This document shows positions 32,917-56,473 of a DNA stretch of 64,000 bases, in pieces. Both the position numbers and the translations under genes were made by a program. The notes beneath the pieces were generated by a model that was given only the letters and a program-made list of their open reading frames with translations, did no database searches and was not told the origin of the DNA. The stretch lies in NCBI RefSeq assembly GCF_016026235.1, contig NZ_CP065613.1. The stretch is one strand, 5' to 3'. Position 1 is the first letter of the stretch, and each line of letters opens with the position of its first letter. The DNA is from Escherichia coli (GTDB taxonomy: Bacteria > Pseudomonadota > Gammaproteobacteria > Enterobacterales > Enterobacteriaceae).

Positions 32917-32947
32917 TTGTCTTGTTTAAAGGTGTGTTAACGTTTCT

Positions 32948-33196
32948 ATGGTAAATCGTGAAATAGTAATGGATTACATCCTTTCCTGTTTACAGGATTT
33001 GGTCGAAAACGGTGTGGAAATTAAGCCCGACAGCGATCTCGTCAACGATCTTGGCCTGGAGTCGATCAAAGTGATGGATCTCTTAATGATGCTGGAAGAC
33101 AGATTCGATATTTCCATTCCTATTAATATTCTGCTGGATGTCAAAACCCCTGCGCAATTAATGGAAACTCTACTTCCATGGCTGGAGAATAAATAA
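32948..33196 (+). CDS. acyl carrier protein
   Basis: 82 aa with the phosphopantetheine-attachment signature DLGLESIKVMDL. Confidence 0.7.
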   Translation: MVNREIVMDYILSCLQDLVENGVEIKPDSDLVNDLGLESIKVMDLLMMLEDRFDISIPINILLDVKTPAQLMETLLPWLENK

Positions 33197-34368
33197 TGGG
33201 GCTATACGATAAATATGCGCGCCTTGCTGGCGAGCGACTGCAATTTAGTGACAACGGGTTAACACCGTTTGGCACCTGTATTGATGAAGTGTATTCCGCC
33301 ACCGAAGGCCGGATCGGCAATAAAAAAGTGATTCTGGCCGGGACCAATAATTATCTCGGTTTAACCTTTAATCATGATGCCATCAGCGAAGGTCAGGCAG
33401 CGTTAGCGGCCCAAGGCACCGGCACCACCGGTTCTCGTATGGCAAACGGCAGTTATGCGCCGCACCTGGCGTTAGAGAAAGAGATTGCCGAGTTTTTCAA
33501 TCGCCCTACCGCTATCGTTTTTTCAACCGGTTATACCGCTAATTTAGGCGTCATCAGCGCACTTGCCGACCATAACGCCGTGGTGTTACTGGATGCCGAC
33601 AGCCACGCCAGTATTTATGACGCCTGTTCTCTCGGTGGCGCGGAAATTATTCGTTTCCGCCATAACGATGCTAAAGATCTGGAACGGCGCATGGTTCGCC
33701 TCGGTGAACGGGCGAAAGAGGCGATTATCATCGTTGAGGGCATCTACAGCATGCTCGGTGACGTTGCGCCGCTGGCGGAAATTGTTGATATCAAACGTCG
33801 TCTCGGTGGTTATTTGATTGTCGATGAAGCGCATTCGTTTGGCGTGTTAGGCGCAACAGGGCGCGGACTGGCTGAAGCTGTCGGCGTTGAAGATGATGTG
33901 GATATTATCGTTGGTACTTTCAGTAAAAGTCTGGCCTCGATTGGCGGTTTTGCTGTCGGTTCGGAAGCGATGGAAGTGCTGCGCTACGGCAGCCGCCCGT
34001 ATATTTTTACCGCCTCTCCTTCTCCGTCCTGCATTGCGACCGTGCGCTCGTCGTTAAGAACTATTGCCACACAACCAGAGCTGCGGCAAAAGCTGATGGA
34101 TAACGCCAACCATCTGTATGACGGTCTGCAAAAACTGGGTTATGAGTTAAGTTCACATATTAGCCCGGTAGTGCCAGTAATAATCGGTTCGAAAGAGGAA
34201 GGTTTACGCATCTGGCGCGAGCTTATCTCGCTGGGCGTGTATGTGAATCTTATCCTGCCGCCTGCCGCGCCTGCAGGCATCACGCTGCTGCGCTGTAGCG
34301 TAAATGCTGCCCACAGTCGTGAGCAAATCGATGCCATCATTCAGGCATTTGCTACTCTGAAGCAGTAA
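33196..34368 (+). CDS. PLP-dependent alpha-oxoamine synthase (BioF/Kbl/serine palmitoyltransferase family)
   Basis: 390 aa with the conserved PLP-lysine context GTFSKSLASIGGF and a DEAHSFG motif; start overlaps the ACP stop by 1 nt. Confidence 0.75.
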   Translation: MGLYDKYARLAGERLQFSDNGLTPFGTCIDEVYSATEGRIGNKKVILAGTNNYLGLTFNHDAISEGQAALAAQGTGTTGSRMANGSYAPHLALEKEIAEFFNRPTAIVFSTGYTANLGVISALADHNAVVLLDADSHASIYDACSLGGAEIIRFRHNDAKDLERRMVRLGERAKEAIIIVEGIYSMLGDVAPLAEIVDIKRRLGGYLIVDEAHSFGVLGATGRGLAEAVGVEDDVDIIVGTFSKSLASIGGFAVGSEAMEVLRYGSRPYIFTASPSPSCIATVRSSLRTIATQPELRQKLMDNANHLYDGLQKLGYELSSHISPVVPVIIGSKEEGLRIWRELISLGVYVNLILPPAAPAGITLLRCSVNAAHSREQIDAIIQAFATLKQ

Positions 34369-34373
34369 TGTGA

Positions 34374-34406
34374 GCCCGCCGTGGTGTTTGCGCCACGGCG
34401 GGTTTA
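34374..34406. terminator. bidirectional terminator hairpin between convergent operons
   Basis: cccgccgtggtg / tttg / cgccacggcggg perfect stem followed by ttt, between the AOS stop and the convergent permease gene. Confidence 0.55.
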
Positions 34407-35483
34407 ATGTTGTCTGTCATACCAATACACCAGGCTCAACGCCACCAACACAAACGCTACCGGTAAACCGAGCGCGGTAACAGGTGCGCTTAACGCAAAT
34501 AGCAATCCCAGATTAACCATGATTTGATAGCTGATCCAGGTGAGTAAGCCCACGATGACGCCTACAGCGAGACGGCTACCCATCCCAGGCGAACGCGGGG
34601 CAGTAAAGGTAAACGGCACAGCCAGCAAAATCATCGCCAGGGTCAGGATGGGTTGCCCCAGTTTTTCCCACAGTGCAAGGCGGTATTCGCTGCTGGGTTG
34701 CCCGGTTTCCTGCAAATAATGGATGTAATGATTAAGCTGACGGACAGAAAAAGTATTCCCCGGCATTGATAACTCTTCAAGATTCATACTGGTGAAGGCC
34801 GATTGCCAGGCAAGATTATCTAATGTTTCCAGCGTTTCTTTGCCATTCAGCCATTTTTTATGATTCACACCATGCAGGACCCACGTTTTGTCGTCTTTAA
34901 TGGTGGCACTGCGTGCATAAATGTAGGATTCAAGCGAGAGATCGTCGGGATAATGAAATATCTCCACGCCCACCGGCTGGCCCTGCTCGTTCAGCGATTT
35001 CACCGTCACAAATTCATTACCACGCCTGGCCCACAGCATATTGCCGGTAATGTCATCGTCCTCCCCCAACGCGGTGGCGGTCGATTTGATTTGCAGCGCC
35101 TGTTGCTGCAATGGCGACGCCACCCACTCATCTATCGCGCCTAACGAAACAGTCCACAATATCCCGGCAACCAGCGCCACCAGTGCAATACGGAAGATAG
35201 AAAACCCCGTGCTGCGAATGGCGGTAAGCTCACTGTTTTTCGATAACTGCCCCAGGCCAACAATCCCTCCCAATAAGGCGATAAACGGCGAAAGTTCGAC
35301 CAGTGTGCGCGGTAAGGTCATTAGCACCACCAGCACCGCCTGAGTCCAGCGATAACCGCCCGGGCTGACATCATCCAGTTCGTTAATCAGGTTGAAGGTG
35401 GTAAAAAGCGGCAGCAATAGCCCTGCGGCGGCGGCAAAACCGAGAAAGAGATGACGGATTAAATAGCGACTGAAAACATTCAT
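34404..35483 (-). CDS. LptG-like permease (YjgP/YjgQ family), paralog
   Basis: Start at MNVFSRYLIRHLF gives a 4-nt ATGA overlap with the upstream gene; six predicted TM segments around a large periplasmic loop. Confidence 0.6.
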   Translation of the reverse strand: MNVFSRYLIRHLFLGFAAAAGLLLPLFTTFNLINELDDVSPGGYRWTQAVLVVLMTLPRTLVELSPFIALLGGIVGLGQLSKNSELTAIRSTGFSIFRIALVALVAGILWTVSLGAIDEWVASPLQQQALQIKSTATALGEDDDITGNMLWARRGNEFVTVKSLNEQGQPVGVEIFHYPDDLSLESYIYARSATIKDDKTWVLHGVNHKKWLNGKETLETLDNLAWQSAFTSMNLEELSMPGNTFSVRQLNHYIHYLQETGQPSSEYRLALWEKLGQPILTLAMILLAVPFTFTAPRSPGMGSRLAVGVIVGLLTWISYQIMVNLGLLFALSAPVTALGLPVAFVLVALSLVYWYDRQH

Positions 35484-36550
35484 CGGGAAAATTTCTGCAG
35501 CAAAGAGAAGTCGCGTGCGACCAGCATCAGCAGGCCCATTAGCATGAGTCCGGGTACTAACCACAAACCAGGAATGAGGGGAATCGCGCCGTTAGCCACC
35601 AGCGTACGGCAGACGTCGCCGCCATAAAAAATGGCAATAAACAGCAACGTCAGTGGCAATAATGTTGAAAATCGCCCTTGCCGCGGTTTTACCCGACTTA
35701 ATGAAATGGCCAGCAGCGCCATCAACAATGCTGTCAGGCCACGGCTTTGCCGCCATTGCAGTTCGGCATGATCGGCAGGAAATACAGAGCGTGCCAGCTC
35801 CGTGACCGATTTTGCTTTGCGTTTGACGTTAGGGCTTTGATCCAGCGGATTCAGATGTAATTGCAGATTACGGTAGATCTGTTCATTGTCGTCACGCCCC
35901 TGATGATCGAGAAGATAGGCAGTGCCGTTGTGCAACATAACGGTCGGTTTCTCGGGTGATGGGTCAACCACATCAACCGAACGGGCGCGGAAAATGCGGG
36001 TTCGATTGGCAGTAGAAGTATAAATCAGCGCGTCAGTCAGGCGATTATTATCCTGATCAACCGTCTGCGAAAGGATCATTCGTCCGTTATCGTTAGTGTT
36101 AAATTTCTTTGCCCGCAACTGGCGAACATCCAGCTCCGACTGCGACTGCTGCTCCAGTTGATAAATCTGCGCATAAGCCCACGGACGACCATACATCGAC
36201 AGAAGGGTGACAAAAATACTTAGCGGTATCGCCAGATAAAGAACGGCTTTGTACAAGCGTCCCGGACTGCCCCCCGCCGCAGAGATAGCGGTAATTTCCG
36301 AGTCGGTATACATCTGCCCTAGCGTCACGCCAACTGACACATACAGACCAACAGGTAACAACATCTCCAGTGCAATCAGCACTTTGTAGAAAACGATATC
36401 CAGCACAACATCAAGAGCTAATGTCCCATTTGCCGCTTCGGTCAGATAACGCTGTGCGGAGTAGCTGGCGAAAATAAAGATCAGAAAACCGACGATAATC
36501 AGCACCAGACGGCGCGTACCACGCATGATGTAGTGTTCAACCAGCTTCAT
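35480..36550 (-). CDS. LptF-like permease (YjgP/YjgQ family), paralog
   Basis: 356 aa with the same architecture as the neighbour; TM1-loop region GQMYTDSEITAISAAG resembles recalled LptF (YTESEITVMHACG). Confidence 0.6.
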   Translation of the reverse strand: MKLVEHYIMRGTRRLVLIIVGFLIFIFASYSAQRYLTEAANGTLALDVVLDIVFYKVLIALEMLLPVGLYVSVGVTLGQMYTDSEITAISAAGGSPGRLYKAVLYLAIPLSIFVTLLSMYGRPWAYAQIYQLEQQSQSELDVRQLRAKKFNTNDNGRMILSQTVDQDNNRLTDALIYTSTANRTRIFRARSVDVVDPSPEKPTVMLHNGTAYLLDHQGRDDNEQIYRNLQLHLNPLDQSPNVKRKAKSVTELARSVFPADHAELQWRQSRGLTALLMALLAISLSRVKPRQGRFSTLLPLTLLFIAIFYGGDVCRTLVANGAIPLIPGLWLVPGLMLMGLLMLVARDFSLLQKFSR

Positions 36551-36580
36551 CTCACTAACGCCCTCAATCCTTTGAATTTT

Positions 36581-37144
36581 TTATTCATTGATCAGTTTCT
36601 GCGCCAGCGCAATGACATGATCTACCTCTTCCGGCGTCAGGCTGCCGTCCTTTGCCCACTGAATTTGCCCGGTTTTATTCAGCACCAGAATGGTTGAACT
36701 CTGCTCCGGCAAGCGCCAGGCAACGCGTCCCTGTCCATTGCCGTCAATAACGAATTGCGCCCACGGATAGCGGCGTTTATTTTTTTCGATTTTGCCAACG
36801 ACAAAATAGCCAGTACCAAAGATGGCATCATCAGTGTTCACAATGGTGGTGGGCTGAAAACGATCCTGTGGAAAGTTTGCCGCTTCAACCGCTTTAATTA
36901 ACAGTGAGTTCTTCTTCTTCGCTGACTTACGCCCGGCGATATACTGGATAATGCGGACTTTTCCCGCCAATTGTGTGCTGTTCCACTTTTGGTAGTGAAT
37001 TTCGTCGTCGCTATTCAGAAGCAGCTCGCCGCCTTCCTGAATATAAACAGGGGTAACCGTTTTGCCAGTGACGAAATTGTGTGCCTGCACACCCGGGGCT
37101 AAGAGCATGATAATCAGCGCAATAATCAAACGAGATGACATCAT
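36581..37144 (-). CDS. periplasmic protein with signal peptide (YtfJ-like)
   Basis: Signal peptide MMSSRLIIALIIMLLAPGVQA; resemblance to YtfJ is from memory only. Confidence 0.45.
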   Translation of the reverse strand: MMSSRLIIALIIMLLAPGVQAHNFVTGKTVTPVYIQEGGELLLNSDDEIHYQKWNSTQLAGKVRIIQYIAGRKSAKKKNSLLIKAVEAANFPQDRFQPTTIVNTDDAIFGTGYFVVGKIEKNKRRYPWAQFVIDGNGQGRVAWRLPEQSSTILVLNKTGQIQWAKDGSLTPEEVDHVIALAQKLINE

Positions 37145-37152
37145 TGCTCCGG

Positions 37153-37977
37153 TTATAGCGGAAAACGCGAAATCAGCAGCTCTAAGCGCTGGCGAATATC
37201 GCTATCCAGCGCCACCGGTGCATCATACGACTGGCGGTTTTCCATATCATCCGCCACCATGTCGTCGTGTTTATCCCCCATCAGGCCATTAATGGCGGCG
37301 AGGAAACGGGAAATCTGTAACGCCTCTTTATTTTCAGGATCAAGCGATCTTAAGGTGTCGTAATAAGAAACCTGCTGGCTGATGATTTTTCGCACATCAT
37401 GAAATTCCCTGCCGGTTAGTCGCGGTTTGGCAATTATCTCTTTCAGGGCATGCATTTGCTTTTGCCGATAGGCAATAAAACCGCTTACGCTTTCTAACTG
37501 GCTATGGCGTAATGAATAGTTCACCAACGACCAGACCGGAGAGCTTAAATAAATTCGTAACAGGTTGCCGTAATACGACACAATATTTTTCTTACCGTTA
37601 CGAAATCCGTCCTGAAAACGTCCCAGAAAAACGGTCGTTTTGCCGAATAAAAATCTGGCCTGATGCTTTTTTAAATACAGCCGTTGTGCAAAACGTAGAT
37701 GCTTGTAGCGCGCTCGCATGTATTTAAACTGTTTACGCTCGTCTGTCGTCAGCTCATCGCCTTTGGCTTGTTTGCGAATTAAACGAAGTAATTCCTGACG
37801 ATCAACGCCATTGAGCCAGAATTGCAGGCATAACGCGTAATTATCATGGATGATTTCGGTGGTACAACATAGTGCGATAGTCGGCGGCAAACTGACCTGG
37901 GCATCAACAACATCATCTTCCTCAATCGCAACAAATAGATGCTCGCTCGCCTCAAGCGGGAAATATTTTCTCATCAT
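37153..37977 (-). CDS. hypothetical cytoplasmic protein (274 aa)
   Basis: ORF whose start overlaps the flippase stop by 1 nt; no recognisable motif. Confidence 0.45.
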   Translation of the reverse strand: MMRKYFPLEASEHLFVAIEEDDVVDAQVSLPPTIALCCTTEIIHDNYALCLQFWLNGVDRQELLRLIRKQAKGDELTTDERKQFKYMRARYKHLRFAQRLYLKKHQARFLFGKTTVFLGRFQDGFRNGKKNIVSYYGNLLRIYLSSPVWSLVNYSLRHSQLESVSGFIAYRQKQMHALKEIIAKPRLTGREFHDVRKIISQQVSYYDTLRSLDPENKEALQISRFLAAINGLMGDKHDDMVADDMENRQSYDAPVALDSDIRQRLELLISRFPL

Positions 37978-39326
37978 CAGGATTTCTCTCCGGCTGCGTT
38001 ATAAAGCAAGGAATGGCGCTGAAAAAAAGCCTTTAAGATCGGAATTAGCGAAAGCACCACATCCAGACATTGACCGCCGAAATAAGCAAACGCTGCTCCC
38101 AGCACGCCAAACAGATGACAGAACATGAACAGCAATACGATGTAGCCGATTGAGGCGATGGTTTGCGCCACGAGAAAAGCGCGCTGTTTTCCCGCCATCA
38201 ATAGCAATGACTCCTGAGGGAAGCCCAGCATCGAGATCACAATTGCGCCCAGCATCACCTGAATCAGGTCATACGCTTCGAGATACTTAACGCCAAACAC
38301 CAGCGAAATGAGCGGCTTGCCGACGATCAACACCGCGAGCGCCACCAGAATACCGATTCCGCCCGCCAGTAAACCGGACTTCACACCTAACAACCACGGT
38401 CTGGTGGTGCGCGGATCTAAACGCATCACCTCTGGGTAAAAACTTTTACCCAGCAAACCCGCTGGCGTTCCGGCGGCGTCGAAGAATGTCATGGCGATTT
38501 TAAATAACCCGGCGACAGCGGGTCCTAACACGATCCCCACCAACACTGTGCTGCACGAGTTACGCGCCGACCAGATGGAGTGGGCAATGTTGGTTGACCA
38601 GACAAAACTCCACGCGCCTTTAATGTGTCGGGCAGACTCAAACAGATTCAATTTGAAGGCGTTATGGATATTTCTGCGGCGTAATTCGCGCGCGGCAAAC
38701 CACCAGTACATGGTGCCGCCAACCAGATTCGACACGTACCAGGCAATAACAAAACCCGCAAAACCAAAGTCAAAATACCAGGCTGCGACGCTCCCCGCTG
38801 CGCGCAGAAAAGGTTTCGTCGCCTGCTGTACAGCAATCAAATCAAAGCGATCTACCGCACGCAGAATGCCGGTCGGCGTGGAGGAAGCCATTGAAGGAAT
38901 GAGCGTGCAATACAGCGCTGCCAGCCAAAAGCTTTGGTCATCCAGACCTAATGAATGGGAAAGAAAAGGGAGTAAGGCAATGCCGCCGACAATCGCCACC
39001 GCGCCGCTGACGATATCCAGCGAGAAGGAAAATGAGACGACATTGCGAAATTGCTGCGGATTATTGTTGGTTAATGCTGGTGTTCCGTACTGAACCACCA
39101 GCTGCCATGTCTGAAACTTAATAAAATCGCTGATCGACTTGGCGTACGATTGCACAATCACCAGTACGCCAAACATGGCGGGCGTCATCCCTTTACCGGC
39201 ACACGAGAGCGCCAACAGACCCAGCAAGGCGCTCACGACATTACTGGAGCCTAACCAGGCGCTATTGCGAATAATGGTGCGAAACGCGCCATCTGCAAAC
39301 CAATGTTTGATGTTAAAACCCGCCAA
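37977..39326 (-). CDS. yghQ: MOP-superfamily (Wzx-like) polysaccharide/lipid flippase
   Basis: 449-aa protein with about 12 hydrophobic segments. Confidence 0.65.
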   Translation of the reverse strand: MAGFNIKHWFADGAFRTIIRNSAWLGSSNVVSALLGLLALSCAGKGMTPAMFGVLVIVQSYAKSISDFIKFQTWQLVVQYGTPALTNNNPQQFRNVVSFSFSLDIVSGAVAIVGGIALLPFLSHSLGLDDQSFWLAALYCTLIPSMASSTPTGILRAVDRFDLIAVQQATKPFLRAAGSVAAWYFDFGFAGFVIAWYVSNLVGGTMYWWFAARELRRRNIHNAFKLNLFESARHIKGAWSFVWSTNIAHSIWSARNSCSTVLVGIVLGPAVAGLFKIAMTFFDAAGTPAGLLGKSFYPEVMRLDPRTTRPWLLGVKSGLLAGGIGILVALAVLIVGKPLISLVFGVKYLEAYDLIQVMLGAIVISMLGFPQESLLLMAGKQRAFLVAQTIASIGYIVLLFMFCHLFGVLGAAFAYFGGQCLDVVLSLIPILKAFFQRHSLLYNAAGEKS

Positions 39327-39371
39327 TTCAGCCTGACCTTATCGTTGATAGTAAAAAGTATCCCGCCAGCC

Positions 39372-40130
39372 TTAAGTTAAACTTCGGCGGTCAGAAACGA
39401 TGGCAACCAGAGAAACCGCCTTCTGTGCCTGTTCCAGCACTTCGCTGTAGGGCGCTCTGGAATCAATCTCAAGAATTTTTGTGCCGTTATAGCCAATCGT
39501 CGACATAACACTGATTTTGTCCTGCAGCTCGGCATAGTCATGGTCAGGCTTGCGGGAGATGGCAGTCTCAATATCAATGCCCAGGCGAATAATTAATTCC
39601 GGGCGATATTGCGCCATTTGTTGGTATAAACGCCGTTCGCGCTGCGCCAGAAACATGCTGATTTTCCCGGTCGCACGTTCGACGCCAATCCCCGGTCCGT
39701 CATAATAAAAGCCCGAAATTTCAGCCTGCGGGAAGCGATCGCTGACCACCAGAACGCCACTTTGCGCCAGTCGCTGAACCTTGCGTAGATTCGCCATTCT
39801 TCGCAGCGAGAAGCAGTACATAATCACCGCCGCCCATAGCGCCGGAGATTTGGTTTTCATGCTTTGGGTTTTCGAGGATTTGGCCGCCAGTCGCCGTTCC
39901 AGCCAGACGCCAACCAACGGCAATCGTTTGATTTTGTCGCCGTCTTCGCCGGAGAGCAGCCCCAAATAGCGGCGCTCGGTTTGCCAGTGTTGTTGCAGCG
40001 ATTTCACCAGGTCGGTGGTCAGTGTGGATTTACCGGTGCCATCACACCCGACCACCGCAATCAGCCCCGGAATGTAGTTGGGCTGCGGCGCGGTTGTACT
40101 AATAACAGTTTGTGTTTGTAGTGCATCCAT
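39372..40130 (-). CDS. yghR: P-loop NTPase, kinase-like
   Basis: Walker A VGCDGTGKST; shares DRFPQ and SRKPDH motifs with two neighbouring paralogs. Confidence 0.65.
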   Translation of the reverse strand: MDALQTQTVISTTAPQPNYIPGLIAVVGCDGTGKSTLTTDLVKSLQQHWQTERRYLGLLSGEDGDKIKRLPLVGVWLERRLAAKSSKTQSMKTKSPALWAAVIMYCFSLRRMANLRKVQRLAQSGVLVVSDRFPQAEISGFYYDGPGIGVERATGKISMFLAQRERRLYQQMAQYRPELIIRLGIDIETAISRKPDHDYAELQDKISVMSTIGYNGTKILEIDSRAPYSEVLEQAQKAVSLVAIVSDRRSLT

Positions 40131-40161
40131 TCGTTAAATCATCCCCTATCCATTTTGGTGA

Positions 40162-40875
40162 TCAAGAAAGCGCGGCGTGAATTGCGCGTAGTGACGCTTG
40201 CAGAATTTCATCGGCTGGTTGCCGACCATCCAGTTCAAGGATCTTTGCGCCATTGAATGTCAATTGCGGCGTAACGGCGATTTTTTCCTGTAACGCTGCC
40301 AGTTGGTGGTCAGGTTTACGCGCAAACGCGGTTTGTTCATCAATGCCAAGACGAATCAACAATACGGGTAAATAAGACGCCATCCATTGGTACAGCTTCA
40401 ACTCGCGCTGCCTTAACATTTTTATCCAACCGTTACCGCCCGTGGTTTTTGCCAATTGCGGGCCATCAAAGCGAAAACCCGGCACTTCAACCTGCGGGTA
40501 GCGGTCGGTGATGAGCAGATGGCCTTGCTGGCTTCTACACAACATTTTGCGAAACTTGTACGCCCGCCAGCAGGAAAGCAGATAGATAACCAGCGCAGTA
40601 ATATTGCCAGGCGGTGTTGAGGGCTTTTCGTGCACATGTGCCGCTTTACTTCGCAGATAACGCCCAAAAGGTGCGCCAATAACAGGGAGCTGTGAAATCC
40701 ATTCGCCAATTCGCCCGGACGATTGCCCGAGATAAATGCGTTCTGTTGGCATTCTTGCTGCCAGTTCATTTACCAGGCTTGCCGTGAGGGTCGATTTACC
40801 TGAACCATCACATCCTACAATGGCAATAACACGCACTGGCGTGGAATTAATTATTGACATATTACGTTGATTCAC
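40162..40875 (-). CDS. yghS: P-loop NTPase, kinase-like
   Basis: Walker A VGCDGSGKST, plus DRYPQ and ARKPDH motifs. Confidence 0.65.
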   Translation of the reverse strand: MNQRNMSIINSTPVRVIAIVGCDGSGKSTLTASLVNELAARMPTERIYLGQSSGRIGEWISQLPVIGAPFGRYLRSKAAHVHEKPSTPPGNITALVIYLLSCWRAYKFRKMLCRSQQGHLLITDRYPQVEVPGFRFDGPQLAKTTGGNGWIKMLRQRELKLYQWMASYLPVLLIRLGIDEQTAFARKPDHQLAALQEKIAVTPQLTFNGAKILELDGRQPADEILQASLRAIHAALS

Positions 40876-41048
40876 GAAAAACCCGGCAGTAAATAATGTA
40901 TTGAATATTACGTGGTCCGTGCTCAGAATATCCGTTCAACCTTATTGTGACAATGGTTAATTGTGACATTGACCTGAATTACGCTTTCATAAAAACATAT
41001 TAACCAAATAAATATTTTGGATGGATATTTAAATTTAAGGATATATTC

Positions 41049-41741
41049 ATGCAGTCAATAACACCTCCATTAATTGCCGTTATTGGTAGCGATGGTTCAG
41101 GCAAGTCAACGGTGTGTGAACATCTCATTACCGTTGTCGAAAAATATGGTGCTGCCGAAAGAGTTCATTTAGGAAAACAAGCCGGAAATGTCGGTCGTGC
41201 AGTGACAAAATTACCGTTGATGGGAAAATCCTTACATAAAACAATTGAACGAAATCAGGTGAAAACAGCAAAAAAATTGCCAGGACCAGTTCCGGCGCTG
41301 GTAATTACAGCGTTTGTCGCCCGTCGCTTACTGCGCTTTCGTCATATGCTTGCCTGTCGTCGTCGCGGGTTAATTGTTCTAACCGACCGTTATCCTCAGG
41401 ACCAAATTCCTGGCGCTTACGATGGTACGGTGTTCCCACCTAACGTTGAAGGTGGTCGTTTTGTCTCATGGCTGGCAAGCCAGGAACGTAAAGCGTTTCA
41501 CTGGATGGCGAGCCATAAGCCTGATCTGGTCATCAAACTCAATGTCGATCTAGACGTGGCCTGCGCGCGTAAGCCTGACCACAAAAGGGAATCGCTGGCA
41601 AGAAAGATAGCCATAACGCCACAGTTAACCTTTGGTGGTGCACAACTGGTTGATATCGACGCCAATCAGCCACTGGAACAGGTGTTAGTTGATGCAGAAA
41701 AAGCGATTACGGATTTTATGACCGCGCGTGGTTATCACTAG
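41049..41741 (+). CDS. yghT: P-loop NTPase, kinase-like
   Basis: Walker [10 protein letters not shown], plus DRYPQ and ARKPDH motifs; divergent from yghS. Confidence 0.65.
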
Positions 41742-41751
41742 CCAAAAATGG

Positions 41752-41782
41752 AAATGCCCGATCGCCAGGACCGGGCATTTTC
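41752..41782. terminator. bidirectional terminator hairpin between yghT and pitB
   Basis: aatgcccg / 11-nt loop / cgggcatttt between two convergent genes. Confidence 0.5.
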
Positions 41783-41789
41783 AGGAAGG

Positions 41790-43301
41790 TTAAATCAACT
41801 GCAATGCTATCCAGTACAGCCCACCAGAAAGAAAAATCGCCGCCGGTAAAGTAAATACCCACGCCATCAGGATGCTGGTTACCGTTTTACGCTGTAACCC
41901 ACCGCCGTCCACCACCATCGTCCCTGCAACTGCAGACGAGAGGACGTGTGTTGTGGAGACGGGCATCCCAATATAACTGGCAAGACCGATAGACACTGCC
42001 GCCGTCATTTGTGCCGCCATGCCTTGCGCATACGTCATGCCGCGCTTACCAATCTTCTCACCGATGGTCATCGCTACACGACGCCAGCCAATCATGGTGC
42101 CAATGCCGAGCGCCAGTGCTACCGCCATGATGATCCACACCGGAGCGTACTCAATGGTGCTTAACATATCGCTGCGAAGTTTTTTCAGCAGGTTCTGGTC
42201 TTCTTTACTGACGCCTGGCGGTTTCGCCAGCTTCGCGGAGGTATCAGAGATGCACAGCATAATGCACAGCATAATGCGGCGCAGCTGGCTGCGCTGACTC
42301 ACGCTTAACGGCTCGTAACTTTCCATATTGCCTGGCAGCATCGTTTTAACGCGCGCAATCGCATCAAAGGTATTTGCCGGATGACAGTGAAACTCCGTCA
42401 CTTGCGCGCCATCAGTAGATGCCGCAGGCAATGGAGGTTCCATCGTAATCAACTTCTGCGGCAGTTCAGGATGCTGTTGCAGGTAGTGTTCGAAGTTGGT
42501 GACGGCATCGCGGGTACGGGTAATTTCATAGCCGGACGCGTTCATATTGACGACGAAGCCAGCAGGGGCAATCCCCACCAATACCAGCATCACCAGGCCG
42601 ATCCCTTTCTGCCCGTCGTTAGCGCCGTGCGAAAACGCCACGCCCGCAGCGGAAACAATCAGCGCAATACGCGTCCAGAATGGCGGCTTACGTTTGCCTT
42701 TTTTCTTTTTGCGATCTTCCGGAATGCGGTGAATACGGTCACGCTTTTTCGTTCCGCTCCAGTAGCGTCGCAGCAGGAATATCAGGCCTCCCGCAATGAC
42801 CAGGCCGACGATAGGGGAAACAATCAGCGAGGAGAAAATTTTGGTCACTTCACGCAGGTTTAACGCATCCATCACCGATGAGCCGGTTAACAGCGCGTTG
42901 GTTAAACCGATGCCGATAATCGCACCAATCAAGGTGTGCGAACTGGAGGCCGGTAAACCAAAGAACCACGTTCCCAGGTTCCAGATAATCGCCGCCAGCA
43001 GCATGGAAAAGACCATCGCCAGACCGTGAGTTGACCCCATATTCAGCAGCAAATCGGTTGGTAACATATGGACAATGGCATAGGCAACGCTAAGTCCGCC
43101 CAATAACACGCCAAAAAAGTTAAAAAATGCCGCCATCACCACAGCAAGTTGTGGTTGCATGGCACGAGTATAAATAACGGTTGCCACCGCATTCGCCGTA
43201 TCATGAAAACCATTGATTGCTTCGTAGAACAACACAAATGCCAGAGCAAGTAATAACAAAAGCCCTGTGTATATATCAAGGCCAACAAATAAATTTAGCA
43301 T
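41790..43301 (-). CDS. pitB: low-affinity inorganic phosphate transporter
   Basis: 503-aa PiT-family polytopic protein in the position of pitB; contains an in-frame 12-bp tandem duplication (see findings). Confidence 0.8.
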
Positions 43302-43543
43302 ATATTAGATTACGCCATTTTGAATTTACGAACGGACGCATTATCAGTGACTTTAACGGTGTGGGCAAAGTGAAATATCATTTTTTAACGATAAAAAGAG
43401 TGTTATTTCTTGTGTATCAGACAATAAGCATTCATTAAAAATCTTTAGAAATAATTAGAACACAGGCATTCTGCTGGTTAATGTATTCACATATGAAATG
43501 AATAAATATTTGAATATATAAATATTGAATATTTTGATTAATC

Positions 43544-43576
43544 CCCGTACTGACTATTCTTCATAATCAGTACGGG
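43544..43576 (-). terminator. candidate Rho-independent terminator of gss
   Basis: cccgtactga / 13-nt loop / tcagtacggg hairpin just 3' of the gss stop. Confidence 0.4.
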
Positions 43577-43592
43577 ATTGCTACAACATGTA

Positions 43593-45452
43593 TTACTCTT
43601 TCACCACAATTAACGGTTCAATATCACTCTCTTTTTTAATAACCAGTGATTCATCACCGCGCAAACACGTCCCACCGTAGTTGCCGCCAACGGTGAAGGT
43701 ACATACCTGAATGTATTTACCGTCCACTTTCGGCAAACACCACAGTTGCTGATAGATGTTTTTCTGCTCGGCAAATTTACCGCTGGTTTTGTCCAGCACC
43801 TCTTCATGATGGCTGACCAGGTCGATATTGCTACCACAGCGACCGGCAATCGGTTTCACTGCGTAACCTGTTTTCACCAATTCATCATTAACAGTGAAAT
43901 CGGTATCCAGCAGGTAACGATGGTGCGGGAACAGCGACCAGAGGATCGGCAGAATCGCTTTGTTGCCGGGGATCACCGTCCACAGCGGCTCAAAGACCAG
44001 CACTTCCGGGCGCAGCAATACGTCGATAAGACGCACTTCGTTTTGCGGATGACCGGTACGGATTGGCACCGCAGCAAACTCACGGTCGCTAACTTCACGA
44101 ATCTGATCAAACGCGGTTTCCCACGCCCAGGTTTTCCACACGCAGTTAACCAGCCGTCCTTCCCCATCAATCAGTTGCCCGGCAGCATCCCAGCCCAGTT
44201 CATCCAGCCCGCGCAAGATACGCGTTTCAAAGCCCGCCAGGTGCAGCGCCTGCTCCATAAACTGCGCGTGATAGTTTTCCTCGATATCTTTGTCCTGCAT
44301 GATATGGACAAACGGACGTGCACGACTGTGTTTCCAGGCACCAGCCAGTTCGTTAATCAGCCCTTCCGCCGGATTGAAGCCGTTGCCTTTATAGCCCTGC
44401 TCCGCCCAACGTTCGAGGATCAAGCCCGCTTCGGTATGACAGGAGGCGGAGTCGGCGTTGTATTCGTAAACCTTCAGGCCACGCTCATCCATGCAGAAAT
44501 CCATACGACCAGTGATCATATGGTGACGGCGACGCTGCCAGGAGAGACGCAAACGTGGCCAGAGGATTTTCGGAATGTCGAACAGCGCCAGCAGGTTGTC
44601 ATCTTTCAGCACCTTGTCGGTTGCGTGAAGATACATCAGGTGCAGCTCGTTGGTGGCTTTAATCAGCTCCTGCTCGGCGCTCTCGGTAATGGTGTAGTAA
44701 TGATACGGATCCTGATTGATCACCTGACCGTTGGCCTGCACATAGGCGTTTTGCAGCGGATCTTTTTCATCCAGCCATTTACCGTCAAACTGGCCTTTGT
44801 TTTCCAGACGCGCTCCGCTGATTTTCAGCAGCTCGCCTGCAATTTCCGGCTGCGGTAAGCTGTATTCAGTATCTTCCGTCTGGATCATCCAGCCCAGAAT
44901 GGTGGTGTCATCAAAAGTGTCTTTAAGGGTATAGCAGCCGTTTTCGACCACCATTTCCAGTTCGCGCGTCCACTGTTGCCCTTGCGGCAACGGGGAATGA
45001 ATCACGTTCTGTTCCGCAATACGGACTTTGTTGCCATGCAATTGGGTAATGATGGCGACATGGCCAGTGTCTTTAAATTCACCGCCTTTATCCCAGATAA
45101 GAAGCGCACCCGCGACCGGCGCACGCGGCGAGCCGTTAGGAAATGCCTGCAATGGCAGTATGTTGTCATTAACCACTTCACGCAGGAAGCGCAGCGAGAA
45201 AATCTCCCACGCCATACCCACGTCAGTGAAGACCACACCGTAATTCAGAAAGAGAAAACGGCGAGCAAATTCAACGCATTGCCATTTGTGGCCCATATAT
45301 TCGTCGTCGATATAGCTACGGAATACGGCGTCATCTTCGTATTCCTGCGGATCGAGAGAACTGTAATCTGAAGAGTAGATTGCTACCCCACCTGGGGCGT
45401 AGCCCAATAATGTCCCGAACGGGGCATCCTGGCTGGTCGTTCCTTTGCTCAT
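43593..45452 (-). CDS. gss: bifunctional glutathionylspermidine synthetase/amidase
   Basis: N-terminus MSKGTTSQDAPFGTLLGYAPGGVAIYSSDYSSLDPQEYEDD matches recalled Gss; start placed at the second Met. Confidence 0.9.
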   Translation of the reverse strand: MSKGTTSQDAPFGTLLGYAPGGVAIYSSDYSSLDPQEYEDDAVFRSYIDDEYMGHKWQCVEFARRFLFLNYGVVFTDVGMAWEIFSLRFLREVVNDNILPLQAFPNGSPRAPVAGALLIWDKGGEFKDTGHVAIITQLHGNKVRIAEQNVIHSPLPQGQQWTRELEMVVENGCYTLKDTFDDTTILGWMIQTEDTEYSLPQPEIAGELLKISGARLENKGQFDGKWLDEKDPLQNAYVQANGQVINQDPYHYYTITESAEQELIKATNELHLMYLHATDKVLKDDNLLALFDIPKILWPRLRLSWQRRRHHMITGRMDFCMDERGLKVYEYNADSASCHTEAGLILERWAEQGYKGNGFNPAEGLINELAGAWKHSRARPFVHIMQDKDIEENYHAQFMEQALHLAGFETRILRGLDELGWDAAGQLIDGEGRLVNCVWKTWAWETAFDQIREVSDREFAAVPIRTGHPQNEVRLIDVLLRPEVLVFEPLWTVIPGNKAILPILWSLFPHHRYLLDTDFTVNDELVKTGYAVKPIAGRCGSNIDLVSHHEEVLDKTSGKFAEQKNIYQQLWCLPKVDGKYIQVCTFTVGGNYGGTCLRGDESLVIKKESDIEPLIVVKE

Positions 45453-45656
45453 CACTTTACCTTTAACAATACAACCTAAGCAGTTGGCGTAATTGTTGTG
45501 CTCTGATTACCTGCTCAGCGACATTAACCGGACAGAGGTCAGACTAATCATACACCTCATCGCAGCGGCTGGCGCAAAGGGTTAAAAAATTCACATTCTG
45601 TACAGCAAGTGACCTGCTACACTGCTTCAACACTACCACTCAGAAGGCAACTCACT

Positions 45657-46523
45657 ATGACAGACAATACTTATCAGCCCGCGAAAGTCTGGACGTGGGA
45701 TAAATCCGCTGGCGGCGCGTTCGCCAATATCAATCGCCCGGTTTCTGGTCCGACGCATGAAAAAACGCTGCCCGTTGGCAAACATCCATTGCAACTTTAT
45801 TCGCTGGGAACGCCGAACGGTCAGAAAGTAACGATTATGCTTGAGGAGCTGCTGGCGCTGGGCGTTACTGGTGCAGAGTACGACGCCTGGCTGATACGCA
45901 TAGGCGATGGCGATCAATTCTCCAGCGGCTTTGTCGAAGTGAACCCAAACTCGAAGATCCCGGCGCTGCGCGATCATACGCATAATCCGCCGATCCGCGT
46001 GTTTGAGTCTGGTTCGATCCTGCTTTATCTGGCAGAAAAATTTGGCTACTTCTTGCCGCAGGATCTGGCTAAACGTACTGAAGCAATGAACTGGCTGTTC
46101 TGGCTACAGGGTGCCGCGCCGTTCCTCGGCGGTGGTTTTGGTCACTTTTACCATTACGCGCCGGTGAAAATTGAGTACGCCATCAATCGCTTTACCATGG
46201 AAGCCAAACGTCTGCTCGACGTGCTGGATAAGCAACTGGCGCAGCATAAGTTTGTTGCGGGCGATGAGTACACCATTGCGGATATGGCGATTTGGCCGTG
46301 GTTTGGCAATGTGGTATTAGGCGGCGTATATGATGCCGCAGAGTTTCTTGATGCGGGCAGTTATAAGCATGTGCAACGCTGGGCAAAAGAAGTGGGCGAA
46401 CGTCCGGCGGTGAAACGTGGGCGTATTGTTAACCGCAGCAACGGGCCGCTGAACGAGCAGTTGCATGAGCGCCATGACGCCAGTGATTTTGAGACGAATA
46501 CGGAAGATAAGCGTCAGGGGTAA
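45657..46523 (+). CDS. yghU: glutathione S-transferase-like protein YghU
   Basis: Start at MTDNTYQPAKVWTWDKSAGGAFANINRP (288 aa); the track ORF is longer upstream. Confidence 0.85.
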   Translation: MTDNTYQPAKVWTWDKSAGGAFANINRPVSGPTHEKTLPVGKHPLQLYSLGTPNGQKVTIMLEELLALGVTGAEYDAWLIRIGDGDQFSSGFVEVNPNSKIPALRDHTHNPPIRVFESGSILLYLAEKFGYFLPQDLAKRTEAMNWLFWLQGAAPFLGGGFGHFYHYAPVKIEYAINRFTMEAKRLLDVLDKQLAQHKFVAGDEYTIADMAIWPWFGNVVLGGVYDAAEFLDAGSYKHVQRWAKEVGERPAVKRGRIVNRSNGPLNEQLHERHDASDFETNTEDKRQG

Positions 46524-46550
46524 GGGTTAGCGTTCGTCGCAGCAAGCCAT

Positions 46551-46640
46551 CCAGGCCGGATAAGGCGTTCACGCCGCATCCGGCAATCGAGCACAATGCC
46601 TGATGCGACGCTGCCGCGTCTTATCAGACCTACGAAAGCT
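46551..46640. repeat. REP elements
   Basis: ggccggataaggcgttcacgccgcatccggca and gcctgatgcgacgctgccgcgtcttatcag palindromic units between yghU and hybG. Confidence 0.8.
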
Positions 46641-46645
46641 AATCA

Positions 46646-46894
46646 TCACGCGCTGGTAATGTCGTAATCCATTTGGCGCAGTGCGTCTAATGTGGCTTTG
46701 GCTTCATCTTCGTCGATGATGCTCATGGCAAATCCGACGTGTACCAGCACCCACTGGCCCAGTAGATCGGCAGGGTTACCTTCACAAATCAGGGCGATAT
46801 TCACGTCGCGCTTGATACCACATACTTCAACCTGCGCAAGCTGGTGAATATCTTCACCGACAGCCAGCACCTGGCCTGGAACGCCAATACACAT
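46646..46894 (-). CDS. hybG: hydrogenase maturation factor, HypC family
   Basis: 82 aa beginning MCIGVP. Confidence 0.85.
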
Positions 46895-46906
46895 TGTTAA
46901 CTCCGG

Positions 46907-47248
46907 TTATTCAACTTCAATACTTTTGACGATCAGCGAATCGCCGGTATCGACACGCAACCGCTCGCCATGACAGAGCGGACACTGCGCATCGTGCTGA
47001 TGAATCTCCACCACCTGGCTGCAATCCCAGCACCAGGCCTGGGCGGGTTTATAGATGATATGTAAATCGCACCCTTGCGCCACCGTTCCGTGGCAGACAA
47101 TTTCAAAACTAAAACGGACGGCGCTCTCCTCAACGCAGGAGAGCGCGCCAATTTCCAGCCACACGGCGGTGACGCGCTTAACATCGTGCTGCTCCGCCTG
47201 CCGCTGGATAATTTCAACGGCGCTCTGGCAAAGCGACAACTCATGCAT
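46907..47248 (-). CDS. hybF: hydrogenase nickel-incorporation protein, HypA family
   Basis: MHELSLCQSAVEII start and CWDC...CPLC zinc motif; internal start used. Confidence 0.85.
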   Translation of the reverse strand: MHELSLCQSAVEIIQRQAEQHDVKRVTAVWLEIGALSCVEESAVRFSFEIVCHGTVAQGCDLHIIYKPAQAWCWDCSQVVEIHQHDAQCPLCHGERLRVDTGDSLIVKSIEVE

Positions 47249-47729
47249 TTTCGCCACTCCTGCGACCAAACAGCAGGGCGCGACGCCCTGCGTGTGGTAC
47301 ATCCGGATTGGTGACCGGCAGCGAAAGGATCATTCGTGCGCAGTCATCCGTCAGGCGTTGGCCCTCTTCAATCGACATACTGTGCGAAAGCGGTGACATC
47401 AGCGAACAGGAGAGGTATTGCGAAACACCGTCCAGTTCGCCAACGGTAAAGGTCATGGTGCCATACGGCAGTTGCAGACCGATTTTTTCACTCACTTTGC
47501 GCAGCGGCCATAGTTGCTCCGGGCCGGGGAAGATAACTGCACTCAGCATCCACGGGGTGATCACACACCCCGTCCACTGACCTTCGAACAGCGTAAAATC
47601 AGAAACATACACCGGCATTGAAGGATGCAGAAAAGAGAGATCGTGCATCGAACGCCGGGCAATTTCTTCAAACGCTGCCTGTACTTGCGCCTTCGGGGAG
47701 GTCTGGAAACCTGCTATCTCTTCAGTCAT
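47241..47729 (-). CDS. hybE: hydrogenase-2 operon chaperone HybE
   Basis: Start at MTEEIAGFQTSPKAQ; overlaps hybD and hybF by 8 nt each. Confidence 0.8.
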   Translation of the reverse strand: MTEEIAGFQTSPKAQVQAAFEEIARRSMHDLSFLHPSMPVYVSDFTLFEGQWTGCVITPWMLSAVIFPGPEQLWPLRKVSEKIGLQLPYGTMTFTVGELDGVSQYLSCSLMSPLSHSMSIEEGQRLTDDCARMILSLPVTNPDVPHAGRRALLFGRRSGENA

Positions 47730-48216
47730 GAATCGCCTCCCGTGGGATGGCTTCCACGCCAGATTCACGCAGCGCAGCCAGAACCTGCTCAAGCGCAGGT
47801 TCAATCATTGCTTCAACCGTCGGCGTTAAGCCGATGTGTGGCTCCAGCGATTCCGGAATTACGCCGACCAGGGTCAGCTTTTTCGGAAACTCGCCGGTGA
47901 AGCGCAGGGCCGACAAGACGTCGGCCAGGCCAAGCTGATGCGGAGAGATTTTGTTGGTAAACAACGCCGGAACTTCTTCATCCCGCAGGATCATCATCGT
48001 TCCCGGCGCGCTCTTCTTCGACACAATGGCATCCGCAATAATCAGATGATCGCGATTTGCCATGTCGCCAAGCAGCTCCATTCCCGCCGTGCCGCCATCG
48101 AGGATCTCAACATAATCCGGCAGAATGTATCGTTGCTCTAACGCTTCGACAATCCGCACACCGATGGCTTCATCGGTCAGCAAAATATTGCCGACCCCTA
48201 AGACTAAAATACGCAT
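47722..48216 (-). CDS. hybD: hydrogenase-2 maturation endopeptidase
   Basis: 164 aa beginning MRILVLGVGNILLTDEAIGVR; start overlaps the hybC stop by 1 nt. Confidence 0.85.
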   Translation of the reverse strand: MRILVLGVGNILLTDEAIGVRIVEALEQRYILPDYVEILDGGTAGMELLGDMANRDHLIIADAIVSKKSAPGTMMILRDEEVPALFTNKISPHQLGLADVLSALRFTGEFPKKLTLVGVIPESLEPHIGLTPTVEAMIEPALEQVLAALRESGVEAIPREAIHD

Positions 48217-49919
48217 TACAGAACCTTCACTGAAACCACTTCGTTGCCGTCAGCATCCACTACGTGTACCGCACAGGCCATGCACGGGTCGAAGGAGTGA
48301 ATGGTACGCACCACTTCCAGCGGTTTATTCGGATCGGCAACCGGTGTACCCACCAGCGACTGCTCGTAAGGACCGACGTCATCATTGAAGTTACGCGGGC
48401 CAGAGTTCCAGGTTGATGGAACAACTGCCTGGTAGTTGCTGATGATACCGTCTTTGATCACCATCCAGTGAGAGAGCATACCGCGCGGCGCTTCGAGGAA
48501 GCCAACACCTTTGAACTCACCCGTTGCCGGAATGTTCGGCTTCACAAAGGTGGTGTGATCGCCTTTGCCGATATTGGTGATCAGTGCACTGTATTGGTTT
48601 TGCAGGATATCCTGCAATTCACAGCAGTGAACGGTACGACCAATAATACGGCCCAGCGTGGAGTGCAGCTGTGCCACTTCCAGCGTGTTGCCAGTCAGTT
48701 TCTGATAAATCGCAACGATTTCATTCAGTTTGTTCTGGGTAGATTCGCGACCTGCCGCCAGTTTCACCAGCATATTAGCCAGCGGACCCACTTCTACCGT
48801 TTTGCCGTAGAAAGTCGGCGATTTCACCCAGGAATATTTACCGTCGTCAGACCAACCGTCGTAAGCCGGAATGGTGGTACCTTCCCACGGTGCCTGCGGC
48901 GCTTCGTCTTTATACCAGGAGTGCTTCGCGCTTTCCTGAATGCCTTTGATCAGGTATTCATCGGAATGAGAAGTGATCGGACGATACGAGGACAGATCCG
49001 CATTCTCAATGTAGCCGCCCGGGAACAGGAAGCTGCCGTTTTTACTGTCGGTCGGGAATTCCGGCACGCTCAGGTAGTTCACCGCACCTTTACCGCGCGT
49101 CAGCCATTCCGGGTAGAACGCGGCAATAACTGCGGTATCAACCTTATAAACCTGTTCAACAAAGTCGCTCAGCTTGTCGATGAAAGACTTGATGTACATC
49201 AGGCGCTCAAGGTTCAGCACGCCCAAACCGTCGAGGTTGATCGGGTTCGCGACACCACCTACCGCCAGGTTCTGAATGTGCGGCGTTTTACCGCCCAGCA
49301 GCGCCACGACGCGGTTAGCGTCACGCTGGCACTCCAGCGCCTGCAGGTAGTGCGCTACCGCAATCAGGTTCACTTCCGGCGGCAGTTTCATCGCCGGGTG
49401 ACCCCAGTAGCCATTGGCGAAAATACCCAACTGACCGCTGGCAACCAGATCTTTGATCTTGTTCTGAACTTTAGTGAACTCTTCCGGACTGTTCAGATGC
49501 CAGGTCGAAACGCCTTTCAGCATTTCGGAGGCTTTGGTTGGGTCAGCTTGCAGTGCAGAAGTGATGTCCACCCAGTCCAGCGCCGAAAGCTGATAGAAAT
49601 GAACGATATGGTCATGCGTGGTGTGCGCAGCCAGAATGATGTTACGGATGTATTGCGCGTTAACCGGAACGTCGATATTCAGCGCACTTTCTGCCGCACG
49701 AACGGAAGACAGCGCGTGAGTGGTAGTACATACGCCACAGATACGTTGCACAATCATCCATGCATCGCGCGGATCGCGGTTTTTCACGATCTCTTCCATG
49801 CCGCGCCACATGGTACCGGAAGCCCATGCTTTCGAAACGACGCCATTTTCGATTTCGCAATCGATGCGTAAATGCCCCTCAATACGGGTTACCGGATCAA
49901 TAGTAATTCTCTGGCTCAT
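48216..49919 (-). CDS. hybC: [NiFe] hydrogenase-2 large subunit
   Basis: 567 aa with N-terminal RICGVCTTTH and C-terminal DPCMACAVH nickel-binding motifs. Confidence 0.9.
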   Translation of the reverse strand: MSQRITIDPVTRIEGHLRIDCEIENGVVSKAWASGTMWRGMEEIVKNRDPRDAWMIVQRICGVCTTTHALSSVRAAESALNIDVPVNAQYIRNIILAAHTTHDHIVHFYQLSALDWVDITSALQADPTKASEMLKGVSTWHLNSPEEFTKVQNKIKDLVASGQLGIFANGYWGHPAMKLPPEVNLIAVAHYLQALECQRDANRVVALLGGKTPHIQNLAVGGVANPINLDGLGVLNLERLMYIKSFIDKLSDFVEQVYKVDTAVIAAFYPEWLTRGKGAVNYLSVPEFPTDSKNGSFLFPGGYIENADLSSYRPITSHSDEYLIKGIQESAKHSWYKDEAPQAPWEGTTIPAYDGWSDDGKYSWVKSPTFYGKTVEVGPLANMLVKLAAGRESTQNKLNEIVAIYQKLTGNTLEVAQLHSTLGRIIGRTVHCCELQDILQNQYSALITNIGKGDHTTFVKPNIPATGEFKGVGFLEAPRGMLSHWMVIKDGIISNYQAVVPSTWNSGPRNFNDDVGPYEQSLVGTPVADPNKPLEVVRTIHSFDPCMACAVHVVDADGNEVVSVKVL

Positions 49920-51094
49920 GCTTTGCTCGCCTCATGACGATTATGATCGTTTTGTTTTAAAGGAGGAAGTATCGGCAGTAGACGAATGAGTACGATGTAA
50001 GCGCAAATCTCAATAGCCACAAAACCAATAGAAATCAACAGTTCTTCCCAGGTCGGGAAGTAGGCGTAACCGCCGCCCGGGTTGAATGCCACCAGCGAAT
50101 AGGTCAGACGCCAGGTTGCACAACCTAACAGTGCGCTCAGTGCTGACAGGAACAGCATGCGGGAATCATTACGCAGCTTCGCCACACGCAGAACGACCAG
50201 CGGGAAGAGCATCAGCAGGACTTCAATCCAGAACATCACGGAGTAGAAGTCACCGGCAAACGCTAACGACAGCTTGTCGCGATAGATAAGCTCGCCAAAG
50301 CGCAGCACGATGAAAATCGCCAGCAACACACTGATGGTGTTGGTCAGCTTGACGAACAGGCTCTTTTCATCCGGACCGTTGCCACGCAGACCCGCCTGCA
50401 CCAGTGAACCTTCAAAGATGACAATCGAGAAGCCCATGATGAACGCCGTCAGCAGCGAGAACAGCGGCAACATTTCATAGCTCTGCCACAGCGGATGCAC
50501 CTTGTAGCCCGCCGAGATCATCAGCGACCCCATTGAAGACTGGTGCATGGTCGGCAGCAGCGCACCGAGCGCGATGATGAAGAACATCACCTTGTTCAGA
50601 CGCTGTAGCGACACCTTCCAGCCCAGACGTTCAAACAGTGCCGGAGCAAACTCCAGAGCCATCACGCCGATGTAGATGGTCATACAGACCGCCGTCTCGA
50701 ACAGTACCGAGTTCACGTTGAAGTGACCCGGAATGTAGAAGTACGGCAGGTTCCAGTAGCGACCCACGTCGATAGTGATCGACAAGCCACCCAGTGAGTA
50801 ACCAAACAGACTCGCCAACAGCGCCGGACGCACCAGCGGATGGTATTGCCCACGGTTAAAGACGTATACCGCCCACGCCAGCGCCCAGCCGCCACAGGCA
50901 AAGCCGGTGCCGATCAGCAGGTCAAACGCGATCCACACGCCCCACGGAAAGCCGCCGTTCAGGTCGGAGACAGAGCCCAGACCGAACACCAGACGCTTCA
51001 CAATCAGGAGCATACAGATGACGATTAACGGTCCAAAAATCATGACCGGTTTACTGATGATTTTGCCGCCCAGCGGTTGTGGATCATGACTCAT
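49916..51094 (-). CDS. hybB: hydrogenase-2 integral membrane subunit
   Basis: 392-aa polytopic membrane protein; coupled 4-nt overlap with hybC. Confidence 0.85.
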
Positions 51095-52070: not shown

Positions 52071-52072
52071 GG

Positions 52073-53191: not shown

Positions 53192-53379
53192 TTATAGTTA
53201 TTCCGTTGCGAAGACCTGGCATATATTTTGCCTCAATCGCAAAATCAATAATGCGATCGATGCGCCATTTACCACACATTTATTATGGTTATCGATATCA
53301 TGATACTGCGGCGGGGCGCTAAAACGAAGGGAAGAAGCATTAGTGTAATTAATTAAAGCAAGATAATACGTATGTTTGA

Positions 53380-53667: not shown

Positions 53668-53785
53668 CGTTCACCTCATTCGCTATATATCGTCATATAT
53701 AGCGATATTTTAGGCAAAGAACGACTTTTGCGCACGCTATTTTTTCATGCTTGTTTAAGACGTAATCCCGTAAGAGATAAACCTA

Positions 53786-55870: not shown

Positions 55871-55909
55871 CCTGTTAATTACGGGCGCGAGAACCGCGCC
55901 CGAATCAGA

Positions 55910-56473
<564 letters not shown>

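Follow-up and report, generated by a model that had tools for sequence, protein, structure and literature searches.

A 12-bp in-frame tandem duplication in pitB that marks one rare lineage of Escherichia coli

The window, by which is meant the whole 64,000-nucleotide stretch of E. coli DNA analyzed here, carries pitB on its minus strand at positions 41790..43301 (503 codons and a stop). The upstream neighbor is gss, encoding glutathionylspermidine synthetase/amidase (43593..45455, minus strand), and the downstream neighbor is the convergent yghT (41049..41741, plus strand); both are placed by the open reading frame list and by the annotation of orthologous loci. The order gss-pitB-yghT is the same in the window and in K-12, and the orthologues in K-12 and in the closest genomes are annotated as pitB by PGAP. 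The open reading frame scores 925.5 bits against the NCBIfam PitA model (cut-off 800) and 314.9 bits against PF01384 (PHO4; cut-off 33.7), with residues 30-492 matching profile positions 1-350 of 350. An AlphaFold2 model of the protein is matched to the transporter TmPiT (6L85_A) with E = 1.1e-11, a probability of 1.00, and a TM-score (target) of 0.65, and the PitB sequence itself matches 6L85 with E = 7e-18. The PiT signatures are present as GFHDTANAV (residues 31-39) and a ten-residue motif (residues 224-233), and D34, H225, G226, D229, and K232 are invariant across 49 homologues. These profile, synteny, and fold matches, together with near-identity to the K-12 gene, confirm that the gene is pitB, as a preliminary description made from the letters of the window had proposed. 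Judged from its sequence, the product is expected to be a low-affinity metal-phosphate/H+ symporter of the PiT/PHO4 family and a paralogue of PitA, with which PitB shares 81% identity.

Within pitB, the 12-bp unit gcacagcataat occurs twice in tandem, at 42252-42263 and 42264-42275, and the plus strand of the window at this site reads ...gag atgcacagcata atgcacagcata atgc ggcg... Positions 42252-42275 correspond to gene nucleotides 1027-1050 in codon phase 0, i.e. to codons 343-350 of the minus-strand open reading frame (ATT ATG CTG TGC, twice), which encode IMLC-IMLC; pairwise protein alignment places the extra IMLC after residue 342. The perfect period-12 run extends over 28 nt (42250..42277, minus strand) and reads GCAT TATGCTGT GCAT TATGCTGT GCAT on the coding strand, comprising two full 12-nt copies and a 4-nt microhomology, for which Tandem Repeats Finder (TRF) reports 2.3 copies with 100% matches and 0 indels. 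The interval 42252-42275 is one valid phase among those of this run. The pitB repeat is the only perfect tandem duplication with a period of at least 10 in the 64-kb window, and a mononucleotide shuffle control of the window yielded 0.08 perfect duplications with periods of 10-30.

K-12 PitB (b2987, 499 aa; WP_000933250.1 in strain RV308) lies at the same locus, is colinear with the window protein, and has the same PHO4 domain and signatures. It differs in that a single IMLC follows residue 342 and residue 357 is Leu, whereas the window allele has IMLC twice and Pro at the equivalent position. The K-12 coding sequence is 1500 nt, in agreement with the length of 499 aa given in the preliminary description. 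When one repeat copy is removed, window pitB aligns with K-12 pitB without gaps, and thus the length difference lies exactly at the repeat; the duplicated IMLC fully accounts for 503 versus 499 aa, and the in-frame duplication stands as it was first described, in sequence, in the TRF result, and in codon phase. In this gap-free alignment, 27 of the 1500 nucleotides differ, 23 of them synonymously and 4 nonsynonymously, which points to purifying selection on pitB across the species.

The distribution of the duplication was examined with a 200-nt query centered on the repeat, which was searched against 5,426 complete E. coli genomes. The duplication is present in none of the 5,067 full-length matches, every one of which spans 188 bases and contains one copy, and 358 genomes give no match to the repeat-containing part of pitB. 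The sole record at ≥99%, strain X14-3, was discarded as a carrier because its match is truncated to 56 bases and contains neither the duplication site nor position 42220. The closest complete genome, FDAARGOS_943, differs from the window by 12 SNPs and one indel over the 20 kb from 36000 to 56000, and this single indel is the 12 bp. The exact 503-aa window protein is publicly deposited under the NCBI name PitB (EHD3362198.1, HAI2281826.1, and others) and is encoded by 12-17 contigs, drawn from assemblies and sequencing runs that are independent of one another; these contigs match the window without a single difference over lengths of up to 21.5 kb. When either residue at position 361 (see below) is counted, approximately 30-36 public contigs carry the duplication; all belong to one clonal background, and every one has exactly two copies.

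The duplication is rare, lineage-specific, and inherited by descent within one E. coli lineage. The suggestion that it is strain-specific holds in that the reference gene lacks it, in K-12 and in all 5,067 complete genomes, and has to be widened from a strain to a lineage. A metagenome match to the 24-nt duplicated sequence (L008, Ga0315276_10151881, 780-920) was rejected; only the 28-nt repeat is common to both sequences, and the match lies in an unrelated 560-aa open reading frame with a long HSAQ/HNAQ and PTGTG low-complexity array. A search of the literature for reports of an in-frame duplication in pitB yielded nothing relevant.

The sequence of the ancestor, as represented by FDAARGOS_943, reads GCAT TATGCTGT GCAT on the coding strand, i.e. 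a 4-nt direct repeat brackets the 12-nt unit. In this sequence, GCATTATGCTGTGCAT, GCAT is found at both ends of the unit, and the 16 nt consist of the unit plus the microhomology. The copies are perfect and arranged head to tail, a close relative has a single copy, and the microhomology brackets the unit in the ancestor, which together form the classic signature of slipped-strand duplication and support the slippage origin suggested in the preliminary description. A nascent strand ending in the second GCAT would have re-paired with the first GCAT, 12 nt upstream, and the unit would then have been copied twice, a step deduced from the junction. With a unit of 12 nt that keeps the codon phase, the product is a full-length PitB in which IMLC is repeated. 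The most plausible history is a single and fairly recent microhomology-mediated (slipped-strand) duplication of 12 bp, then inheritance by descent, with the lineage later gaining the substitution L361P in the loop that closes the lengthened helix. A structural cause or hotspot for the slippage was considered and rejected: any hairpins are weak (about -4.7 kcal/mol), and repeats of at least 4 nt occur in pitB at 11 sites with a spacing of 12 and at 225 comparable sites with spacings of 6-30. The repeat site is not a hotspot, which agrees with the lack of independent recurrence among approximately 5,000 genomes.

The second change, which the preliminary description does not mention, concerns codon 361 (42219..42221, minus strand; codon 357 in K-12), which is CCG (Pro) in the window owing to a SNP at 42220 and is CTG (Leu) in K-12, strain 203740, and FDAARGOS_943. 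The codon lies 11 codons downstream of the duplication, at a distance of 30 nt. In a search with a 64-nt query that leaves out the repeat, the window base at 42220 is found in 0 of 4,967 full-length complete-genome matches, the best of which is 63/64. Additionally, three hypothetical PitB proteins were looked up by exact sequence. The ancestral allele, without the duplication and with Leu (P0016), is present on at least 1000 contigs, and the duplicated allele with Leu (P0017, 503 aa; e.g. EFK2886286.1, HBD0183474.1) is present on 11-19 contigs, whereas Pro without the duplication is absent among the public proteins covered by this exact-sequence look-up. P0017 has the same duplication and haplotype as the window and differs in having Leu rather than Pro at 361. 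Over 10-21.5 kb, 2-3 SNPs separate its contigs from the window; one of them is always 42220, and 38515 is another on every contig that includes it. These two positions, both nonsynonymous, are the only SNPs that separate the window subclade from the duplicated Leu haplotype L012 over 10 kb. Position 38515 lies in a gene for a yghQ-like polysaccharide flippase (449 aa, 37977-39338, minus strand), in which the change is A275V (GCC->GTC).

Since the intermediate with the duplication and Leu is on record and Pro alone is not, the duplication arose first and only once, and the change from Leu to Pro followed in the same lineage. The duplicated Leu allele is, by the same sequences, the direct precursor of the window allele. 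Neighboring run accessions differ in allele (Leu in SRR13627083 and SRR13627094, Pro in SRR13627086), which suggests, as far as accession numbers can tell, that a single sampled population contains both alleles.

TmPiT (6L85) is the only solved homologue and shares the PiT membrane-core fold with PitB. In the alignment of the two, PitB residue 249 corresponds to chain residue 277 and PitB residue 388 to chain residue 286, whereas residues 250-387 are unaligned; this region is wholly absent from TmPiT and has no solved counterpart. The region (residues ~250-387; 42141..42554, minus strand) is a soluble insert of five helices specific to PitA and PitB. AlphaFold2 models, built from 48-49 diverse homologues with a mean pLDDT of 87-88 and a pTM of 0.89-0.90, place its helices at residues 257-276, 279-287, 308-321, 334-358, and 366-383. 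The fourth helix, with the duplication at its middle, spans residues 334-355 in the model of the ancestor and 334-358 in that of the duplicated allele and is approximately one turn longer in the latter. The local pLDDT decreases from 92-97 in the ancestor to 76-87 in the duplicated allele, a weak indication only, as AlphaFold2 does not predict the effects of mutations. The loop that immediately follows the lengthened helix contains residue 361, a position that is variable among 49 PitA-type proteins.

The loops at residues 182-207 (13 Lys and Arg) and 405-423 (5 Lys and Arg) are assigned to the cytoplasm by the positive-inside rule, and the insert domain at residues 250-387 is therefore predicted to be periplasmic. 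Two published observations fit this placement: the N and C termini of TmPiT are extracellular (PMC7413737), and E. coli PitA is described as having an "unusually long L7" loop on the extracellular side (PMC3126765). Human PiT2 retains phosphate transport when a large soluble domain outside the core is deleted (PMC3126765), a precedent for transport that does not require a non-core domain. The dispensable domain of PiT2 is the intracellular L6, whereas the insert of PitA and PitB is the long L7 on the outer side, and the analogy therefore lends no more than indirect support to tolerance of an insertion here.

The segment surrounding the duplication is conserved in length. Residues 336-360 show 100% occupancy in 49 PitA-type proteins (31-84% identity), and extra residues at the insertion point occur in the window protein only and in 0 of the 48 other homologues; the one nearby length change is a 5-residue insert just after the Cys position in a distant homologue (P0182). 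R341, which precedes the insertion segment, is nearly invariant (44/49), and the segment shows amphipathic periodicity. With 4 residues inserted, the half of the helix downstream of them is rotated by ~40 degrees, and the hydrophobic pattern of the site recurs. Ancestral PitB contains only two cysteines, both in the insert: C306, in the His-Cys-His motif FHCHP (window ~42384-42386), and C346. Among 48 homologues, 9 have both, 4 have C346 only, none has C306 only, and 35 have neither. The duplication adds a third cysteine (350) at i+4, one helical turn from Cys346 (346 and 350 both lie within window 42252-42266), and a putative disulfide or metal site formed by C306 and C346 or C350 is conceivable from these sequences.

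With respect to the role of the gene, K-12 PitB is described as a functional transporter if expressed but as normally silent or repressed (PMC6469041, a secondary source). The same source states that PitB is normally non-functional in wild-type K-12 and that pitB is repressed by the PHO regulon, whereas another secondary source reports that pitB is expressed under phosphate stress (PMC3649669); the two conflict on the direction of regulation by phosphate. Natural in-frame deletion alleles of pitB are found among public proteins (P0019-P0093). They include del159-213 (444 aa, on dozens of contigs), del166-234 (430 aa), which removes the signature at residues 224-233, del322-356 (464 aa), which spans the duplication site, and del348-370 and del348-372, which start 2 residues after it, as well as del66-100, del104-126, and others. 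Several of these deletions remove transmembrane helices or the C-terminal PiT signature, and pitB appears to be recurrently inactivated in nature. The window allele resembles these alleles in being an in-frame length polymorphism of natural isolates. However, the deletion alleles lose 23-69 residues and many are clearly inactivated, whereas the window allele gains 4 and retains every conserved element. The 358 of 5,426 genomes without a match, the many in-frame deletion alleles, and the non-functional state of PitB in wild-type K-12 indicate that pitB is a dispensable and normally weakly expressed paralogue of pitA.

Because the conserved core for PiT transport does not include the insert, and because pitB is dispensable and weakly expressed, the duplication is probably near-neutral or mildly impairing, a slippage event of single origin that drifts in one rare E. 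coli lineage, and a strong phenotype would not be expected from it. Counting against this reading are the purifying pattern of pitB as a whole, the fixed length of the segment among homologues, the lowered local pLDDT, and the nearness of the SNP at 42220 to the duplication.

A less likely but substantial alternative is loss of function, in which the 4-residue insertion misfolds the insert domain or destabilizes PitB; the allele would then belong to the recurrent decay of pitB in E. coli, with L361P as a further degenerative hit under relaxed selection. The insertion could do more harm than a site outside the core would imply, as judged from the length-conserved segment, in which none of the 48 other homologues has extra residues, and from the nearly invariant R341 that adjoins it. 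The local decrease in pLDDT, the natural occurrence of clearly inactivating in-frame deletions in the same part of the gene (del322-356, del348-370, and del348-372 among them), the 358 genomes without this part of pitB, and the nonsynonymous nature of the second hit, which introduces a proline, point in the same direction. However, all 503 codons are in an intact frame, the insertion repeats the hydrophobic pattern with a downstream rotation of only ~40 degrees, and the modeled helix is still continuous in an unchanged overall fold (pTM 0.90). Additionally, the functional PiT transporter TmPiT lacks the insert domain altogether, position 361 is family-variable and lies in a loop, and the allele has persisted long enough for diversification.

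An adaptive change, in which the longer helix or the extra cysteine near FHCHP alters a regulatory or metal-related function and L361P compensates, is improbable. The SNP at 42220 lies 30 nt from the duplication and is one of only two that define the subclade, which hints at a non-random link; the chance of one of two subclade SNPs over 10-21 kb falling within +/-50 nt is ~1%, although this statistic is post hoc and involves two SNPs only. Proline, a helix terminator, stands at the C-terminal end of the lengthened helix, and the two native cysteines co-occur across homologues, but this co-occurrence is limited to close enterobacterial relatives. The other SNP likewise changes an amino acid (A275V), in the unrelated gene for the yghQ-like flippase, which fits ordinary clonal drift. 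The duplication is found in no other lineage and shows no sign of recurrent selection, and pitB is reported to be poorly expressed or cryptic. Very improbable is the more specific proposal that the duplication and L361P form a two-step remodeling of the insert domain that alters metal-phosphate recognition or its regulation. Here the second cysteine, one turn from Cys346, may lie opposite FHCHP, and L361P may re-terminate helix 4; if this were true, natural genetics would point to a function for the insert domain of PitA and PitB.

The K-12 phnE gene offers a precedent for a short duplication gained and lost by slippage in a phosphorus-uptake transporter gene, since an 8-bp duplication there underlies the cryptic phn operon (PMC6469041). 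The phnE duplication causes a frameshift that silences the gene, and it reverts easily when selected for, whereas the 12-bp unit of window pitB is in frame, and neither reversion nor copy-number variation is seen among its carriers. This precedent for a slippage switch and the presence of a tandem repeat within a transporter gene would favor a contingency repeat that makes pitB phase-variable, with the gene turned on or off according to copy number. This reading was rejected and has next to no probability, as a 12-nt in-frame unit inside the open reading frame can change in number with no effect on the frame, no more than 2 copies are present, and close relatives are invariant, with 2 copies in all carriers and 1 in all other genomes. 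A sequencing or assembly artefact in a single genome, toward which the 0 complete RefSeq genomes with the duplication might point, can be dismissed, because the identical duplication is present in the independent NCBI assemblies GCA_012807895.1, GCA_050054195.1, GCA_031665325.1, and GCA_018228405.1 and in Logan assemblies of the runs SRR1118464, SRR30892832, SRR13627083/86/94, and SRR11606891.

The probable near-neutral or mildly impairing duplication is of limited importance beyond strain typing; it is an ordinary slippage polymorphism rather than a new system, in a gene and protein family that are well known, as is the mutational mechanism, and the identical protein has been deposited before. 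With or without L361P, the duplication can serve as a clean marker, rare and of single origin, for one E. coli lineage and for a subclade of it. The ancestral, duplicated Leu, and duplicated Pro alleles also form a natural test of how well a helix insertion is tolerated in the 135-residue insert domain of PitA and PitB. Alongside the many in-frame deletion alleles, the duplication shows that pitB in natural E. coli is a paralogue that is often altered and can be dispensed with.

Several other features of the window were observed. The stretch at 14279-18856 (minus strand) contains an intact open reading frame of 1525 aa resembling sslE/yghJ, and a row of T2SS-like genes occupies 1-13950. Colinearity with FDAARGOS_943 stops at window position 18451, where a Mu-like prophage (mom, com, tail, and head genes) lies in the sslE/yghJ-like gene of that genome; the remnant is annotated there as "incomplete, missing C-terminus". 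Between the yghQ-like gene and the glc operon, window ~24000-37000 contains a lipid-synthesis and export-like island, which we take to be absent or degenerate in K-12. By annotation transferred from FDAARGOS_943 (L016 4292-11952), the island comprises genes for serine palmitoyltransferase (spt), an acyl carrier protein, an NAD-dependent epimerase, and a fatty acyl-AMP ligase, as well as a second lptF/lptG pair and a YtfJ-family protein. TRF also reports an intergenic REP/BIME-like repeat at 13973-14274 (133-nt unit, 2.3 copies, 95% matches), a 30-nt unit in 2.1 copies at 18630-18691 inside the 5' end of the 1525-aa open reading frame, an imperfect 12-nt unit in 2 copies at 28322-28345, and an AT-rich 15-nt unit in 2 copies at 43502-43532 in the pitB-gss intergenic region.
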